From a virus (lineage: Duplodnaviria; Heunggongvirae; Uroviricota; Caudoviricetes): 6,309 bases of DNA. Below the pieces are notes generated by a model. The model did not search any database, had not been told where the DNA came from, and was given only the letters and a program-made list of their open reading frames with translations. A program made the position numbers and the translations under genes. Each line of letters begins with the position of its first letter. Position 1 is the stretch's first letter. The DNA is taken from IMG/VR virus record IMGVR_UViG_2703718791_000019; one strand, 5' to 3'. Of the stretch, positions 1 through 6,309 are shown one piece after another.

Positions 1-230
1 GGTGCTTTCAGAATATTGTCCAGGTCACGGCGGCGCTTATCCGGTGGCTCTGCAATAATTTTTATTGCCAGCCGTCCGGACAGGCTTAATTTCAGTCGCT
101 GCTGGCGAACAATAAGCGCCACTGCCCGGCGATAACGCTCCCCGGCTTTTGATACAAAATATGTGCTGCCACGGCGTCGCCAGTAAGTGTTCACCGTCGG
201 CGGGTAAGGTAAAACCAAATCTATGAGCAT
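1..230 (-). CDS. rusA: Holliday junction resolvase RusA, 5' portion (76 codons visible; 3' end beyond window start)
   Basis: Own translation of the minus-strand frame that is open to the window edge: ATG at 230-228, preceded by an in-frame TGA at 236-234 and a GAGG Shine-Dalgarno 6 nt upstream. Product MLIDLVLPYPPTVNTYWRRRGSTYFVSKAGERYRRAVALIV...EPPDKRRRDLDNILKA matches the remembered E. coli RusA N-terminus (LPWPPSNNRYY..., DRRRRDLDN motif). Missing from the ORF track because it has no stop inside the window. Confidence 0.8.
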   Translation of the reverse strand, partial: MLIDLVLPYPPTVNTYWRRRGSTYFVSKAGERYRRAVALIVRQQRLKLSLSGRLAIKIIAEPPDKRRRDLDNILKA

Positions 231-242
231 CAGTCACCTCTT

Positions 243-1292
243 TTACCCAAGCACGCCAGTTGCAAAGGCGTGATCAAGAAAACGAAAAATTAAATCAACC
301 TGAGAACCATGCTTTTCTTCGAACGCCAGCGGATCCGCATGAAGCTCGTTGTGATGCTCCCGACACAGCGGTAGCGTGAAAATATCGTGGGATTTTGTTC
401 CCATTCCGCCCTGACCATGACCAATCAGATGATGAGGATCGTCCGCTGGCTTACCACAACACGCACACGGCTGTGTCTTTACCCAGCGTGTGTATTTCTC
501 ATTTACCCAGCGGCGACGTTTAGGTCGTTTCATGAAGGATTCCGGAGACTCCGGATCAACGGCAATGCTGACCACCGTCTTTTCCTGTGGTGGGTTCTGT
601 TGCTGGTGGGTGTGAGGCGGTAGCGCAATATTTTTTGTGCGCTGCTTCAGTATGCTGGTGGCGGTCTGTTCTCCCGGTATGATGTCGCTTTCACGGTATA
701 CGGAGCGGATTTTTTCCGCCGGTAATCCCAGAGAACGACGCGCTACTGCCTCAGGTAGTGCATCCACCACCTGATTGCAGGCCGCCCACCAGGATAATTC
801 GGCCAGCGATAACTCCCTCTCCTGCGTGCCGCTTATTGCGTGACGGATGACGTCAATCATCCAGGCAACCAGATTCTGCTGAGCAAGTTGATCGAGTGAT
901 TCTGATGTCTGGTCGCGCAGCTGGTTGTCACAGTGCCAGCACAACACCATCGCGCCGGTACCGTAACGGTGAATGACTGTTTCGCTGTGATGATAATCGC
1001 CGTGTGGCCACTGGCAGGATTTAATATGGCGCAACAGCCAGTCAGACAATGCACCAGCACCACCAGCAGCACGAATCACCCGTGCGTTACTGAAAAACGG
1101 CAGCAATGTTTTGTCTTCCACTAGCGGCTGGCGAACGGCAGGAACAACCCCGGACGGCAGATTACGCATGCTTTTCGGTTCCGGCTCCACCAGTACCCGG
1201 GTATTGTGGAATACCGGCATGGATTCACGGCCCGGCTTAACGATCACCAGCCCGAGTTCCGGTACCAGAACAGGTCGAAGTAATACCCGCAC
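243..1292 (-). CDS. Cys/His-rich prophage protein with HNH-like C-terminal motif; resembles DUF968/YdfU-type proteins (family name from memory)
   Basis: 349-aa ORF. Start codon is GTG at 1292-1290 with a GGAGG Shine-Dalgarno 5 nt upstream, 1 nt after the TAA of the preceding ORF. Two Cys/His clusters: SCQWPHGDYHH...LCWHCDN and CACCGKPADDPHH...LCREHHNELH. Stop TAA at 243-245, 12 nt before the rusA ATG. Confidence 0.8.
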   Translation of the reverse strand: MRVLLRPVLVPELGLVIVKPGRESMPVFHNTRVLVEPEPKSMRNLPSGVVPAVRQPLVEDKTLLPFFSNARVIRAAGGAGALSDWLLRHIKSCQWPHGDYHHSETVIHRYGTGAMVLCWHCDNQLRDQTSESLDQLAQQNLVAWMIDVIRHAISGTQERELSLAELSWWAACNQVVDALPEAVARRSLGLPAEKIRSVYRESDIIPGEQTATSILKQRTKNIALPPHTHQQQNPPQEKTVVSIAVDPESPESFMKRPKRRRWVNEKYTRWVKTQPCACCGKPADDPHHLIGHGQGGMGTKSHDIFTLPLCREHHNELHADPLAFEEKHGSQVDLIFRFLDHAFATGVLG

Positions 1293-1293
1293 G

Positions 1294-1566
1294 TTACCTC
1301 CAGATGCGTTGCTGGAATGTGCGGGACGGACGCGGCGGGCGTTCGGAATAAAGGAGCCTGACGTAGATTATCCAGTGACGGTAGTCGAGGCTAAGGGCTT
1401 TCTTAAACTCATACCCACGTCTGCGGTAGTTATGAATCAGCCATTCGGCCTGTTCTTCAGTGCAGGGATCGTGCTGATACCAGTCATATTTGAATGTGTG
1501 AGAACACCGCCCTTGCCTGCTGGCAGGGGCGATATCAGAATTGTGATGTTTGGTATTGTGCGCCAT
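1294..1566 (-). CDS. hypothetical 90-aa protein
   Basis: ATG at 1566-1564 is the first ATG in the frame; stop TAA at 1294-1296 is 1 nt from the GTG start of the next gene, so the two look coupled. No clear Shine-Dalgarno. The ORF-track extension to 1647 starts at a TTG inside the terminator U-tract and is rejected. No recognisable family. Confidence 0.45.
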   Translation of the reverse strand: MAHNTKHHNSDIAPASRQGRCSHTFKYDWYQHDPCTEEQAEWLIHNYRRRGYEFKKALSLDYRHWIIYVRLLYSERPPRPSRTFQQRIWR

Positions 1567-1635
1567 CGGTTGTCTCTGCTGGCGCAGCAGGTGCCAGTTG
1601 TTCAGGCTGGCGTGTGGATTGTAAACCAGAATGCC

Positions 1636-1664
1636 AGGAAAAAACAAAACCCGCGAAGCGGGTT
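1636..1664 (-). terminator. Rho-independent terminator downstream of the restriction endonuclease gene
   Basis: Plus strand 1648-1664 is aacccgc-gaa-gcgggtt, a perfect 7-bp stem with 3-nt loop. On the minus strand it is followed by TTTTGTTTTTTCC (plus 1635-1647). It sits 73 nt after the endonuclease stop. Confidence 0.6.
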
Positions 1665-1736
1665 AGTAAAAATGTACTGAAGTCAATGACGTGCCATCAC
1701 AGTTAAAATATGACAGACTCTATTTACGTAGAGATG

Positions 1737-2615
1737 TCAGACTGCAAGATCCAAGGGAAGATCAGAAATATCCTTTAATCTTTTACCATTAACCATCACG
1801 GAAAGCATGTCAGCTGCATCGCTGAGCCCCAGTATTTCAACTGCTGATATAAGTTCATAAAGCGCAAAATGATACACGCAATCTATATCACCAGTACCAA
1901 GAGCAATAGACGCCAGACGACTTGGAGTAGGCTCAGCAGTAACAACCATTACATGAGGGAGATTTCCCTTACGGTTGCGAATAAGATTTAATGCCTCAGA
2001 ACGAGCATTCTGGGCCCGGTCGCTTCTTATTGTCCATTTGCAGGAAATACTTGCGTGTAATATTGGTTTCCCACCATTCGAACTCCTGAGAGCTGACATG
2101 CGGGTAACAGAATCATCCACCAGTAATTCAGGACTGTTGATAACTTGATCACATTCAGGTTCTCTTTCAACAATAATATCTGGTGAAATCGTATAATCAC
2201 TCCCCAGTGCAGCAGCTAGCTGAGGATTACTTTTTGCAGCACTATCCAATGCTATAAGATGGGCATATTGTTCATATTTAGCTATCTCTAATCTGTTTCT
2301 ACCAGAAACCTGATGTACATTCCATTTTCCAGGGCGTAAGTGGCTGAGTTTAAAAAAGGTTTTTTCTATAAACTCTGCGCAGATACTCTCAAACTGATTA
2401 CCAGATGTTTGCCCTGCAACACGTTCACCAATCGTTTCAGCCTGCAAGAAGCGAGCAATTTCTCTTGCTATAGCTTTACTGTTTTTGTTACTGCTATCTG
2501 CGTTACTAACAACTCCGGCAGTATTAATTGTGAGCGTATTCAGTAACAATTGGGCATGAAACTCCTTTCTGGCTTCAGCAAAACCAACTATGCTGTCAAC
2601 CAAATCTCCATTCAT
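1737..2615 (-). CDS. Type II restriction endonuclease, PD-(D/E)xK fold, NgoMIV/Cfr10I-like (predicted GCCGGC or RCCGGY specificity)
   Basis: 292-aa product from ATG 2615-2613, with AAGGA about 9 nt upstream and 14 nt after the methyltransferase stop. Candidate catalytic residues are SPD(146), SCK(193) and E(207): spacing D-47-K-14-E, the same spacing I recall for NgoMIV D140/K187/E201. C-terminus MVNGKRLKDISDLPLDLAV. The ORF-track N-terminal extension (2616-2750) overlaps the methyltransferase in another frame and is rejected. Confidence 0.75.
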   Translation of the reverse strand: MNGDLVDSIVGFAEARKEFHAQLLLNTLTINTAGVVSNADSSNKNSKAIAREIARFLQAETIGERVAGQTSGNQFESICAEFIEKTFFKLSHLRPGKWNVHQVSGRNRLEIAKYEQYAHLIALDSAAKSNPQLAAALGSDYTISPDIIVEREPECDQVINSPELLVDDSVTRMSALRSSNGGKPILHASISCKWTIRSDRAQNARSEALNLIRNRKGNLPHVMVVTAEPTPSRLASIALGTGDIDCVYHFALYELISAVEILGLSDAADMLSVMVNGKRLKDISDLPLDLAV

Positions 2616-2628
2616 TTCTGGATTTCCT

Positions 2629-3753
2629 TCAGGCTGCTTGACTATTCTTACTGATGTTATTCTTATACCGTCCCTGCAAAACTCCATACACATATTGTGC
2701 GATTTTTGCCGCAAATAGCGGTGGAACAGCATTCCCGATCTGCTTTGCAATCTCAGTTTTTGAACCGGTAAAAATGAAATTATCAGGAAAAGACATTAAT
2801 CTCGCTGCCTCACGATGAGTTATTGGCCGATCCTCTTCCGGATGTAAATATCGCCCTTTCTCCGGTTTGAAAAACTCAGTACGAATCGTTACTGAAGGTC
2901 TGTCCCACCACAGACGTCCAAACAAATCGGTCCCTCCAGATTTCTTTTTTAGCCAGCACGCCGGGGTTATATCAGGTCTTTTTTTCTGTAAATCGAAACG
3001 GTTACCTCCTGGTGGAACCGCTTTATATCGCTCCAGAGAAACAGGTGTGGGATTACGCCCAAAATGTAAGTTCAGCGGAGGAAGTTCATTACGAATATCA
3101 GTTCCAACAGGAGCAGGTAAGTCACCAATTGCATCACGCGTACAGACCCATTCAGGCAAAGCGACATCCTTATCAGGGGAACGATGCGTTGGTGCTGGCG
3201 GGAACGCCGGAATACTATGCACATCGAAGAGTTCTCGTTTGATACCGATTGCTATCGTTCGTTTTCTTGTCTGAGGTACTCCATAGTCAGCAGTATTCAA
3301 CACCATTGGATTAAGCAGAATAAAGCCCATGGATTTCGCTCTAAACGTAATGTCCGCAAACTCATCGCTTATCAGCAATCCGGGGACATTTTCCATGACG
3401 AACATACAAGCCCTTGAACGCTCAATGACATCCATATAAGGCTCCCACAATGCTCTTCGGTGATCACCATAACGATTCTTATTCAATAAACTGAATCCCT
3501 GACACGGGGGGCCACCTATGACCACATCAGCCTCAGGAACAGTATTGCTGGATGCCCACTCCTCAATATTTGCCTGAACTCCATGCAAACCAAAATTGGC
3601 ATTGTAGGTATTTATAGCTGCAGCATTATTATCAATAGCAAGGATACTTTCAAAGTAGTCAGACATCTCTCCATGAAGAAAACCATAAGATAATCCACCT
3701 GCCCCACAAAAGAGGTCTATCACTCTGAATTTATTTAATTCTTTCATCCGCAT
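2629..3753 (-). CDS. DNA (cytosine-5)-methyltransferase, cognate methylase of the adjacent endonuclease
   Basis: 374 aa with canonical m5C-MTase motifs in order: I FCGAGG, IV GGPPCQGFS, VI FVMENVPGL, VIII QTRKR, X QIGNAVPP. ATG at 3753 with GAGG 8 nt upstream. Stop TGA at 2629-2631. Confidence 0.93.
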   Translation of the reverse strand: MRMKELNKFRVIDLFCGAGGLSYGFLHGEMSDYFESILAIDNNAAAINTYNANFGLHGVQANIEEWASSNTVPEADVVIGGPPCQGFSLLNKNRYGDHRRALWEPYMDVIERSRACMFVMENVPGLLISDEFADITFRAKSMGFILLNPMVLNTADYGVPQTRKRTIAIGIKRELFDVHSIPAFPPAPTHRSPDKDVALPEWVCTRDAIGDLPAPVGTDIRNELPPLNLHFGRNPTPVSLERYKAVPPGGNRFDLQKKRPDITPACWLKKKSGGTDLFGRLWWDRPSVTIRTEFFKPEKGRYLHPEEDRPITHREAARLMSFPDNFIFTGSKTEIAKQIGNAVPPLFAAKIAQYVYGVLQGRYKNNISKNSQAA

Positions 3754-3836
3754 CCATATGCCTCAGATTAATGTTGAGCGTCTTACAGGACGCGTAATGT
3801 TAACTGGGGCTTTCTCTATCTGCCTTTTGGTGTTCA

Positions 3837-3861
3837 TGCCTGAGGCAGACAGCCTCAGGCA
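3837..3861 (-). promoter_or_regulatory. Perfect 10-bp inverted repeat (stem-loop) in the leader upstream of the methyltransferase
   Basis: 3837-3846 tgcctgaggc and 3852-3861 gcctcaggca are exact reverse complements, with a 5-nt loop agaca. No flanking U-tract on either strand, so it is not a canonical intrinsic terminator. It lies between the QueH-like stop (3932) and the methyltransferase start (3753). Confidence 0.45.
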
Positions 3862-3870
3862 CCCGCAGCA

Positions 3871-3899
3871 ATTCTACTTAACTCACGTCACCTCGCCAA
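3871..3899 (-). promoter_or_regulatory. Candidate sigma70 promoter for the R-M operon
   Basis: Minus strand reads TTGGCG (3899-3894), 17-nt spacer, TAGAAT (3876-3871). The predicted transcript start would place the inverted repeat at roughly +5 to +30 of the leader. By-eye match only. Confidence 0.3.
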
Positions 3900-3931
3900 T
3901 ATGAAATCAATCAGAAAGGTGATCCATAAAA

Positions 3932-4618
3932 TCACTCCTTCTCTTCTTTTCCGTAGTGGAGTTGGCCAATTTTGATAAGAGGGCGTCCCTGAGATTTGCG
4001 GTGTAGATTGGTATCGCGCAGAGAATACACACAGCCACAATATTCCTGCTGATAGAATTTTTCGCGCTTGCTGATTTCAATCATACGGGACGAGCCGCCC
4101 TGCTTGCGCCAGTTATAATCCCAGTACACCATACCCGGATAATGCGCAACAGCTCGCCGCCCACACTCGTTAACCTGCTGCATATTTTTCCAGCGTGAAA
4201 TGCCCAGTGAACTGCTGATCACACTGAAACCATTTTCAGCAGCGTACAACGCTGTCCGCTCAAAACGCATGTCAAAACACATGGTACAACGGATCCCCCT
4301 CTCAGGCTCCCATTCCATTCCTTTGGCACGTTCAAACCAGTTGTCGGTGTCGTAATCAGCATCGATAAACGGCACGCCGTGTTGTTCAGCAAAGCGAATA
4401 TTTTCATCCTTACGAATTAAATACTCTTTCTGAGGATGAATGTTCGGGTTGTAGAAAAAGATGGTGTAGTCGATTCCCGAGGCCTGAAGCGCCTCCATCA
4501 CTTCACCGGAACATGGAGCACAGCAAGAGTGCAGTAGTAGTTTGTTTGCCCCGTTTGGGAGCTCCAATTTAGGCCGTTTGAAATCAGCAATAGTCATAAA
4601 TATTTTTATTGGGGTCAT
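3932..4618 (-). CDS. queH: QueH-like protein (DUF208 family; putative cobalamin-independent epoxyqueuosine reductase)
   Basis: 228 aa carrying the DUF208/QueH hallmark [11 protein letters not shown] near the N-terminus, then [19 protein letters not shown] and [14 protein letters not shown] cysteine motifs. ATG at 4618; the alternative ATG at 4597 cannot be excluded. No strong Shine-Dalgarno. Stop TGA at 3932-3934. Confidence 0.75.
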
Positions 4619-4771
4619 GAAAATAGCACAGAGTGTAGCATCAGAGCAGGGCTATCGGGAATATATGTCTAAATCTGGTAATATCTGGTTTTGACGCAAA
4701 GCGGACAACCACGCTGGCTCTACCCTGCGCCATGAAAATGTCAATTCACATCTGAACTAATGCTCTTTAAT

Positions 4772-5197
4772 CTAGTAACGTCTAAAATATCTAACATTTC
4801 CTTGATAAAATGCCAGTACACGCTGCATAGCTTCGCTCTTCCGGCACTCGCGACAGATTATGTTCATACGCCTGTCGTAGCGGCGTATTTCTCCGTCGGG
4901 TAATGTCCAGATAAGGCCCGGATCAACCACTGCAGGTTTCTTCACCTTTGCCCTTGAGAGTTTTTTGCGAGCATTTTGCCAGTCCTTACGCGCCTGTTCA
5001 GACGGGAATAACCCGTAACCAGAGTTGTATACATCGCCACTGGCAACCAGCTCTCTGGCAAGAACGCTCATCAGATATCTTGTCGCACCTGTCTTGGCTT
5101 CCAGTTGCCGTAACGTCTCGCGCCCACTCCGGCGTACTAGCTCAACAACCTGCCCTTTAATTTTTTCCCGCTCTTCTTGTGTAAATACTTTTGCCAT
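4772..5197 (-). CDS. hypothetical basic protein, 141 aa, possible winged-helix DNA-binding N-terminal region
   Basis: ATG at 5197-5195 with AAGG 6-7 nt upstream, 15 nt after the TGA of the upstream gene. The TTG at 5212 used by the ORF track is less likely. Lys/Arg-rich; contains LRQLEAKTGATRYLMSVLARELVASG, read by eye as HTH-like. Stop TAG at 4772-4774. No family recognised. Confidence 0.65.
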   Translation of the reverse strand: MAKVFTQEEREKIKGQVVELVRRSGRETLRQLEAKTGATRYLMSVLARELVASGDVYNSGYGLFPSEQARKDWQNARKKLSRAKVKKPAVVDPGLIWTLPDGEIRRYDRRMNIICRECRKSEAMQRVLAFYQGNVRYFRRY

Positions 5198-5212
5198 AAG
5201 CGCCTTCGGCAA

Positions 5213-5960
5213 TCACTTTTCCGATACAACACGGCGGGAAGAATCAGTAATCTGTCGAACAATATCCCGGTGCTTGTTCAGCTCCCGCAGCGCGGCGCAG
5301 ATTCGCTCCCACTTCTGAACATCACTTTTCGCCCTGCGCAGCGCCAGGTTTGCCCTGCGCAGGGACGGAAAAATCAGCTCATCTGCTTGCGTTTCGGTAA
5401 ACGATAGCAACGGCTGCACAATGTCCGCCACAGTTTCTGTTTTAATTTCTTCCTGTGTTGCGGCTTCCCGGACTGGTAACGCAGCACCTGCTGGCTGAGG
5501 AAAGGCCTTACCATCATTTTCCGTTACCAGCGCGGCTTTCGGCTCTGCTGGTAAATTATCGCCCGGCATGCAGTAACGAAATTTACCGTTCTGATTAACG
5601 CGTGCCAGGCGCCCCGTTGCTGTTACGACCGCCAACGTGGAAGCAACCTTGCGAATGCTAACACCGAACTTATCCGCCAGTTCCTCACACGTTTTAGCCC
5701 CATCCTGACCGATAAACTCAATCATCATGTCTGCGGTAACTTTTTGTTCGACCTCCCCGGTCAGCATATCCTGTGCTTCAGATTTTACTGGCCGCTCTTC
5801 GGTTACCCGGGATTCACCTTCGCCAGCCAGAAACCAGGTGTGACCAGTTTTATCAACGACGCCATTTCTTTTGAGTTCCCACAGCTCGTTGACAGCATCT
5901 TCGCGGCTGATTCCAAGGCGCGATGCCACTACCTGTGAAGAGGCTTTTTTCAGTGCTTTC
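5213..5960 (-). pseudogene. Gene for a winged-helix-like protein, 5'-truncated by IS insertion; the open frame continues into the IS to 6037
   Basis: The 274-aa ORF 5213-6037 crosses the IS terminus at 5961. Its first 25 codons (MLPSEIMIWQPEFTDKILSRKPGAV) are encoded inside the IS right end, so the native N-terminus is missing from the window. The native part has two HTH-like stretches: VASRLGISREDAVNELWELKRNGVV and CEELADKFGVSIRKVASTLAVVTATGRLARV. Confidence 0.55.
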
Positions 5961-6309
5961 TGAACCGCCCCGGGTTTCCTGGAGAGTATTTTATCTGTGA
6001 ACTCAGGCTGCCAGATCATTATTTCCGATGGAAGCATAATAAGCTTTTTCTGCTTCTGCCGGAGGAATATGGCCCAGCCTTTCCAGCAATCGTCGATTGT
6101 TATACCAGTCCACCCACGTTCGTGTGGCCAGTTCCACTTCTGTCCGGTTTTTCCAGCTATTACGGTGTATTACCTCCGCTTTGTAAAGACCATTGATGCT
6201 CTCAGCCATCGCGTTGTCATACGAGTCGCCAGTACTCCCTGTTGATGCCAGTAATCCGGCTTCCTTAAGCCGCTGCGCGTAGGCCAGCGATACATACTGA
6301 GAACCTTTA
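5961..6309 (-). mobile_element. IS3-family insertion sequence, IS629/IS1203-like, right end (partial; continues beyond window)
   Basis: The terminus TGAACCGCCCCGGGTTTCCTGGAGAG beginning at 5961 matches the remembered IS629-type terminal inverted repeat (TG... end). The OrfB stop lies 42 nt inside the end. Orientation is minus. Confidence 0.85.
6003..6309 (-). CDS. IS3-family transposase OrfB, C-terminal portion (partial at window edge)
   Basis: The frame is open to the window edge. Translation ...KGSQYVSLAYAQRLKEAGLLASTGSTGDSYDNAMAESINGLYKAEVIHRNSWKNRTEVELATRTWVDWYNNRRLLERLGHIPPAEAEKAYYASIGNNDLAA contains the DDE-region signature GDSYDNA..ES.NGLYK.E and the WVDWYNNRR tail typical of IS3-family OrfB. 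Stop TGA at 6003-6005. Confidence 0.9.
   Translation of the reverse strand, partial: KGSQYVSLAYAQRLKEAGLLASTGSTGDSYDNAMAESINGLYKAEVIHRNSWKNRTEVELATRTWVDWYNNRRLLERLGHIPPAEAEKAYYASIGNNDLAA

Follow-up and report, generated by a model that had tools for sequence, protein, structure and literature searches.

A prophage-borne restriction–modification gene pair with an NgoMIV-type nuclease in the hok/sok slot of Escherichia coli lambdoid prophages, predicted to run on hok expression signals

The viral DNA stretch analysed here (further referred to as the window; 6,309 nucleotides, Caudoviricetes, IMG/VR record IMGVR_UViG_2703718791_000019) carries two adjacent genes of a putative Type II restriction–modification (R-M) system, i.e., a C5-cytosine methyltransferase (M) and an NgoMIV-family nuclease (R). 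An initial reading of the letters alone (further referred to as the original prediction) had described this pair as an NgoMIV/Cfr10I-family system residing as an accessory cassette in the nin region of a prophage. All substantial open reading frames (ORFs) of the window are located on the minus strand, and M and R indeed constitute a complete, co-oriented Type II pair in which M precedes R. The pair and the elements immediately surrounding it are, in order of transcription:

3871..3899, minus strand: hok promoter TTGGCG-17-TAGAAT, captured and likely active for M-R in the lysogen (promoter scan; shared with hok loci)
3760..3864, minus strand: remnant of the hok mRNA 5′ leader (approximately nucleotides 1–105), now the 5′ untranslated region of M (Rfam RF01794)
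1666..3759, minus strand: acquired cassette of 2094 bp, comprising M, the spacer, R, and a 71-nt 3′ tail (blastn vs. hokD allele L005)
2629–3747, minus strand: C5-cytosine methyltransferase M, with an in-frame alternative ATG at 3753 (Pfam, TIGR00675)
1737–2615, minus strand: NgoMIV-family nuclease R (Pfam PF09015)
1638..1664, minus strand: hok-derived intrinsic terminator, i.e., AACCCGCTTCGCGGGTT followed by a T run (hairpin 1664–1648; terminator scan)

The 292-aa product of R (WP_001012717.1 in the PGAP annotation) matched the NgoMIV_restric profile of Pfam (PF09015) over its entire length (1–275 of 275; E=6e-127, 423 bits vs. a cut-off of 23.2), and also the PADLOC REase_II model (E=8e-126). 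Moreover, its residues 12–292 aligned with residues 5–286 of NgoMIV (PDB 1FIU, E=1e-118), with 185 of the 281 aligned residues being identical (66%; 1FIU/4ABT). By these matches, which lie far beyond chance, R is a bona fide NgoMIV-family restriction endonuclease. The original prediction had staked its family assignment on an alignment with NgoMIV, Cfr10I, or Bse634I over the catalytic region, and in the alignment obtained with NgoMIV the catalytic set is conserved, with E76, D146 (in P145-D146), K193, and E207 of R corresponding to E70, D140, K187, and E201 of NgoMIV. The D-47-K-14-E spacing given for NgoMIV in the original prediction is exact in both (D146/K193/E207 vs. D140/K187/E201).

Enzymes of the CCGG family share a PDX46-53KX13E active site with an additional upstream Glu, and read CCGG via an R-x-D-R motif (PMC3413111). 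Correspondingly, R has a PDX46KX13E arrangement and an RSDR motif (R197-S198-D199-R200, corresponding to R191, S192, D193, and R194 of NgoMIV). The four residues that determine the strict outer G:C pair in NgoMIV (D34, Q63, S192, and R227; PMC4652773) are likewise conserved in R, as D40, Q69, S198, and R233. Because R is 66% identical to the crystallised tetramer NgoMIV, it is predicted to cut G/CCGGC as a Type IIF, tetrameric enzyme that needs two sites. Cfr10I and Bse634I (R/CCGGY) and the CCGG family at large resemble R in fold, active-site arrangement, and R-(D/E)R recognition of CCGG (PMC3413111). The Cfr10I half of the proposed NgoMIV/Cfr10I family name did not hold at the sequence level, however, in that a Pfam scan (E<=0.01) returned NgoMIV_restric alone and a PDB phmmer search (E<=1) returned NgoMIV chains alone, with no Cfr10I/Bse634I family match in either; in addition, unlike Cfr10I/Bse634I, R keeps the equivalents of the NgoMIV-specific D34 and R227 for the strict outer G:C (PMC4652773). 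A longer call for R (from TTG 2750, 337 aa, overlapping M) was rejected, as homologues, NgoMIV, and PGAP all back the ATG at 2615.

Translation of M from the ATG at 3747, the start also called by PGAP (WP_001427299.1), yields a product of 372 aa that matched the Pfam DNA_methylase family (PF00145, E=4e-54), TIGR00675 (dcm), and the PADLOC class MTase_II. Its motifs comprise I (DLFCGAGG, residues 11–18), IV (GGPPCQGFS, 78–86, with the PCQ catalytic Cys), VI (ENV, 119–121), VIII (QTRKR, 159–163), IX (312–322), and X (GNAVPP, 338–343), with the target recognition domain (TRD) situated between VIII and IX. By these matches and motifs, M is a complete C5-cytosine DNA methyltransferase; the motifs announced by the original prediction (I, IV, VI, VIII, and X) were all located, and IX as well. 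A PDB search with M gave generic 5-methylcytosine (m5C) methylase matches (M.HaeIII, M.HhaI, DNMT1) that are uninformative on specificity.

The M stop codon (TGA) and the R ATG are separated by 13 nt (2616..2628, minus strand; AGGAAATCCAGAA), so that the 14 nt given originally was essentially right, and a ribosome-binding site for R (AGGA) can be read inside this spacer. Since no ORF other than overlapping out-of-frame ones was found between or beside M and R, the small helix-turn-helix controller gene and the C-box upstream of R that define C-protein-controlled Type II R-M operons were not observed here.

The setting of the pair became apparent from a blastn comparison with hokD allele L005, in which window positions 1–1665 and 3760–5960 matched, while 1666–3759 remained unmatched. 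Where the window has its 2094-bp cassette, the allele has 287 bp (1874–2160) with the mok and hok ORFs. As read from the sequence, these 287 bp also include an oppositely oriented promoter of the Sok type and the fbi element (TCAACGCACCC), which is complementary to the 5′ end of the mRNA. All features by which a type I hok/sok toxin–antitoxin (TA) locus is recognized (hok ORF, mok ORF, Sok antisense promoter, and fbi) are missing from the window. The locus is no longer a TA locus, with promoter, leader nucleotides 1–105, and terminator as what remains of it.

Upstream, an identity of 95–98% to hok loci runs through AATCTGAGGC, which holds the mok Shine-Dalgarno (SD) sequence, and stops just before the mok ATG, so that the leader remnant ends with this SD (GAGG, 3764–3761). 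The Rfam sok/hok leader model RF01794 matched window 3864–3684 (61 bits vs. a gathering score of 59, E=1e-11), with an alignment that is good only to approximately 3760. Downstream, identity to the hok allele restarts at the base of the terminator hairpin. The same promoter hexamers are found at the same position in hokD allele L005 and in phages Tritos and Rac-SA53, and in L005 the same promoter and the same hairpin with T run bracket a hok unit of approximately 415 nt. The 170 nt upstream of M (window 3760–3929) have matches in numerous phages and in thousands of E. coli genomes without R-M, and in such records their homologue stands directly upstream of hok/mok. The arrangement QueH-hokD-small ORF-DUF968 occurs in the same backbone in many genomes (e.g., ST131 strain ZH193). 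The truncated hok leader is a relic and reveals in which direction the event went, with the R-M pair displacing the hok core. The G+C content of the cassette (42.7% vs. 51.1% in the flanks) is as expected for acquired cargo.

The candidate promoter and terminator of M-R are, in consequence of their position in this comparison, parts of the pre-existing hok/sok transcription unit and lie outside the cassette. The pair had originally been credited with a promoter and a terminator of its own, and although both sites are present where they were proposed, they are shared with the hokD allele outside 1666–3759 and do not belong to the cassette. This bears on the possibility that a self-contained mobile R-M cassette, equipped with its own promoter and terminator, entered the nin region. 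In its favour, the pair is indeed flanked by a promoter-like and a terminator-like site, and in Klebsiella prophages the related pair is preceded by a short conserved stretch that includes an SD of its own. Nevertheless, both signals of the window reside in DNA that is 84–98% identical to hok/sok loci without R-M (the upstream piece being matched by the hok/sok model of Rfam), the Klebsiella copies share DNA homology with the window in the two ORFs only, and non-backbone DNA starts only approximately 10 nt before the M start, which leaves no room for a cassette-borne promoter. We therefore consider such a self-contained entry very improbable. With no room for a promoter in the cassette, M-R would have to use the hok promoter, supplemented by lytic read-through.

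The junction between hok leader and M recurs in diverged copies (97–99.6%) that have another backbone upstream of the hok –10 hexamer. Copy L121, with a 97.6% identical M-R pair, has no hok leader and differs up to approximately 12 nt before the M ATG (region 3800–4000), with the downstream terminator region being kept; it also carries a second m5C methylase gene (32% identical, opposite strand) approximately 2 kb downstream of R (8283–9074). Regarding the start of M, three ATGs are situated within 3745–3757, after the retained mok SD, of which the one at 3757 is out of frame (8-codon mini-ORF) and those at 3753 and 3747 are in frame. Only the ATG at 3747 is kept in variants L119 and L120, the one at 3753 being missing from L119.

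The remaining genes of the window, again in order of transcription, are:

6003–6209, minus strand: IS3-family transposase fragment (C-terminus), first in transcription order
5213–6037, minus strand: DUF1627 gene (profile searches)
4772–5212, minus strand: DUF977 gene (profile searches)
3932–4618, minus strand: QueH homologue, epoxyqueuosine reductase (PF02677, E=1e-65)
1294–1647, minus strand: small ORF without a family match, called by PGAP as 90 aa
243–1292, minus strand: DUF968/HNH-like protein (weak HNHc_6 match)

In the annotated genomes of strains 9000 and F8704-2, the M-R pair lies inside a lambdoid prophage with the gene order repressor/cro, replication genes, DUF1627, DUF977, QueH, M, R, small ORF, DUF968, RusA, antiterminator Q, and lysis and morphogenesis genes. 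The pair thus has the replication genes/DUF1627/DUF977/QueH on one side and DUF968-RusA-Q on the other, which is the nin-equivalent region of an E. coli lambdoid prophage. This location had been proposed together with the status of the pair as an accessory element, with which its lower G+C content agrees. The QueH gene is located in the early-right operon of the prophage, directly upstream of the hok slot, and is conserved in thousands of E. coli prophages; the small ORF and the DUF968 gene, which lie between the hok slot and RusA/Q, belong to the conserved backbone. In the same slot, phage Tritos (L003 858–2614) carries genes for an ImmA/IrrE-type protein and a hypothetical protein downstream of hok, and in strain S1bESBLb a KwaB-like (Kiwa) protein adjoins QueH. 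With such varied cargo between QueH/hok and the terminator, this slot may be a hotspot of accessory or defence genes.

The closest kin of M were not found among the usual partners of NgoMIV-type nucleases. A genome-wide scan for relatives of R yielded >500 loci from many phyla, of which the closest 80 (60–78% identical; N. gonorrhoeae not among them) were kept. In 74 of these 80, an m5C methylase of approximately 325 aa stands directly upstream of R, and these methylases are 61–100% identical among themselves. This canonical partner was defined by its conserved adjacency to NgoMIV-family R genes rather than by comparison with M.NgoMIV. The window M was only 28% identical to it over residues 4–180 (the N-terminal half) and 44% over the last 52 residues, with no alignment of the TRD, and as judged from this comparison M is not orthologous to the usual partner. 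The proposed family assignment of the system is consequently upheld for R only, and M belongs to a different lineage.

Relatives of the window M that are 47–77% identical instead precede an HNH protein of 312–330 aa in a Yersinia P2-like prophage, in Psychromonas, in Halomonas, and in >30 IMG/VR contigs. This protein consists of two winged-helix-like repeats and a C-terminal HNH domain (Pfam PF01844), with a distant McrA match. Its gene (e.g., L093 6100–7092, L094 4654–5640, L095 6115–7053, and many of L126–L163) is always located directly downstream of, and often overlaps, a gene of the same m5C methylase lineage, and is frequent in P2-like prophages. This family with two winged helix-turn-helix (wHTH) repeats and an HNH domain is probably a Type II restriction enzyme.

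In a neighbour-joining tree of the methylases, all NgoMIV-partnered ones (i.e., the window, the Klebsiella lambdoid prophages L007–L012, L122–125, and L160) form a single clade nested among the HNH-partnered ones. The most conserved segment of the methylases corresponds to residues 231–300 in the TRD (87–91% identical whatever the partner), and the alignment of the window M with HNH-partnered methylases extends up to residue 363 of 372. The simplest reading would be that an NgoMIV-type gene once took the place of the HNH nuclease gene, while the methylase upstream of it remained unchanged; this implies, without proving, that GCCGGC is covered by M and that the HNH enzymes act at this site or at one overlapping with it.

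The same data also allow for an active system in which M, as inherited from its HNH partnership, recognizes a shorter or degenerate site that includes GCCGGC (e.g., CCGG, RCCGGY, or a GGCCGGCC-related site), with R cutting the GCCGGC subset only. The TRD of M is unrelated to that of the canonical partner, and its core is as conserved towards HNH-partnered relatives as within the NgoMIV-partnered clade, suggesting an unchanged M specificity across the change of nuclease fold. On the other hand, a viable swap of R is most simply read as both nucleases sharing one site, and we hold the broader specificity of M to be possible but on the unlikely side.

Two exchanges may then have shaped this locus: (a) an R-M operon precisely replaced the hok/sok toxin core and came to stand on the hok promoter, the mok initiation region, and the hok terminator, and (b) an HNH nuclease was swapped once for a PD-(D/E)XK nuclease of the NgoMIV type with the methylase TRD held constant. 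We regard this combined history as quite possible, if short of probable. If true, (a) would mean that one post-segregational-killing module was exchanged for another on the same expression chassis, and (b) would make the two-wHTH/HNH nucleases restriction enzymes of the GCCGGC type (iso- or neoschizomeric). To our knowledge, replacement of a hok core and a nuclease swap have not been described together.

With regard to distribution, a 2.3-kb region was 100% identical in 59–60 of 5426 complete E. coli genomes. Carriers are mostly UK O157:H7 isolates (strain 9000, Z-series), the others being O39:NM F8704-2 and a bovine isolate from Japan. The pair is already annotated in public genomes ("DNA cytosine methyltransferase" for WP_001427299.1 and "NgoMIV family type II restriction endonuclease" for WP_001012717.1 in RefSeq/PGAP) and is hence not new, but an uncharacterised member of a well-known kind. 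As public pipelines already name both genes correctly, the annotation value of the present analysis is small. Among phage GenBank records, no copy of the cassette was found and the hok-leader piece alone was matched. Klebsiella and other enterobacterial prophages carry the M-R pair at approximately 80% amino-acid identity in other accessory slots, i.e., either upstream of DUF968-Q, with DinI and a LexA-like gene on its two sides, or immediately downstream of Q. Since the pair occupies varied slots, and the window and the Klebsiella copies resemble each other in DNA sequence within the two ORFs only, M-R is recurrent lambdoid-phage cargo that adopts local expression signals.

Among close (97–99%) and distant (80–86%) copies, the ratio of nonsynonymous to synonymous substitution rates (dN/dS) was 0.04–0.07 for R and approximately 0.155 for M, pointing to purifying selection on both genes. 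The window contains no GCCGGC, and the prophage has 4 where 15 are expected. Avoidance of this site as a sign of R-M activity was rejected as uninformative, unrelated GC-rich palindromes being equally scarce.

We consider it very likely that the locus is an intact Type II R-M operon that is carried as cargo in the prophage nin region, has replaced the hok/sok core, runs on hok signals, and works as a G/CCGGC system in the lysogen. The M-R cassette displaced the mok/hok frames, the Sok promoter, and fbi, whereas the promoter of hok, approximately 105 nt of its leader (with the ribosome-binding site of mok), and its terminator stayed in place. In the lysogen, a single M-R mRNA may be produced from the constitutive hok promoter and end at the hok terminator, and during lytic growth M-R would be transcribed by read-through of the early-right operon. 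R would cut G/CCGGC with two sites needed, like NgoMIV, and M is expected to protect the GCCGGC sites of host and prophage by m5C methylation. Unmethylated phage and plasmid DNA that enters the lysogen would then be restricted, and cells losing the prophage might be penalised by post-segregational cutting, i.e., a stabilising role of the same kind as that of the displaced hok/sok. The superinfection-exclusion or addiction role put forward originally is thus putative, and can reasonably be inferred.

Several points weigh against this interpretation. Use of the hok promoter by M-R is suggested by its consensus match and its conservation, and the promoter scan gave 4 promoter-like sites vs. 4.7 in shuffled sequence. 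The region of the mok SD and the M start is base-paired in the predicted leader fold (a minimum free energy prediction from a single sequence). Protection of GCCGGC by M is deduced only from its co-inheritance with an intact R, M itself not being an orthologue of the canonical partner, and the depletion of GCCGGC in the prophage is no greater than that of GGCGCC, ACCGGT, or GCGCGC. A literature search for this system gave no paper characterising M-R. Finally, R is split near residue 85 with M intact in two IMG/VR copies (L118 5133–6007 and L119 2210–3084), and M is split near residue 251–256 with R intact in another (L137 4001–5115); in these draft assemblies, the frameshifts may reflect natural decay or sequencing or assembly error.

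The two frameshifted R copies, the lack of a reported phenotype in the literature searched, and a phage-borne methylase lineage that outlives changes of partner would fit a locus with an inactive or attenuated R, in practice a solitary phage methyltransferase that guards phage DNA from NgoMIV/HNH-type systems of the host. We deem this improbable, as R in the window has its full length and retains all catalytic and recognition residues, is 100% identical in approximately 60 complete genomes, and has a dN/dS below that of M. A working R-M operon remains the preferred reading.

Compared with known systems, the window pair resembles the NgoMIV system of N. gonorrhoeae (R.NgoMIV, G/CCGGC, a Type IIF tetramer) in an R that is related over its full length, and in the order of M and then R, co-oriented and with no controller protein. 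It differs in that its M of 372 aa belongs to another m5C lineage than the usual partner, and in that the pair is prophage-borne rather than chromosomal, with captured hok signals. The phage-borne pairs of m5C methylase and HNH protein that are cargo of P2-like prophages share its methylase lineage and likewise have the methylase preceding the nuclease, whereas their HNH nuclease is unrelated to the PD-(D/E)XK NgoMIV fold of R. The PstI-like R-M system on the Stx2 prophage of E. coli O104:H4 is also lambdoid cargo expressed in the lysogen, with other enzymes, another site, another insertion point, and other signals. The hok/sok loci of lambdoid prophages (hokD, and hokW-sokW of Sp5) sit in the same slot between QueH and the small ORF-DUF968-RusA-Q, and have the same promoter, approximately 105 nt of the mRNA, and the terminator, but differ from the window in possessing mok and hok ORFs, Sok promoter, and fbi. 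In O157 lambdoid prophages, hok/sok has been experimentally verified as a TA system (hokW-sokW of Sp5; PMC8621323).

The predicted GCCGGC m5C methylation and restriction barrier would concern an O157:H7 sub-lineage and a few other strains resembling Shiga toxin-producing E. coli, and bears on transformation, transduction, and phage-therapy host range. The locus furthermore illustrates, in a clean natural case, how cargo is exchanged at the lambdoid hok/sok slot and promoter and terminator are captured, in support of the view that selfish or defence modules have a hotspot there. The methylase phylogeny in turn leads to a testable specificity prediction for an uncharacterised HNH restriction-enzyme family that is common in P2-like prophages. 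Replacement at the hok slot and the nuclease swap are the novel aspects, and only mildly so.

At the far end of the window, homology to other prophage backbones ends at position 5960, and 5960–6309 match the end of an IS3-family element. An exact match to the junction at 5960 was absent among complete E. coli genomes. Relative to its annotation in other genomes, the DUF1627 gene has lost approximately its first 8 codons to the IS3 insertion.

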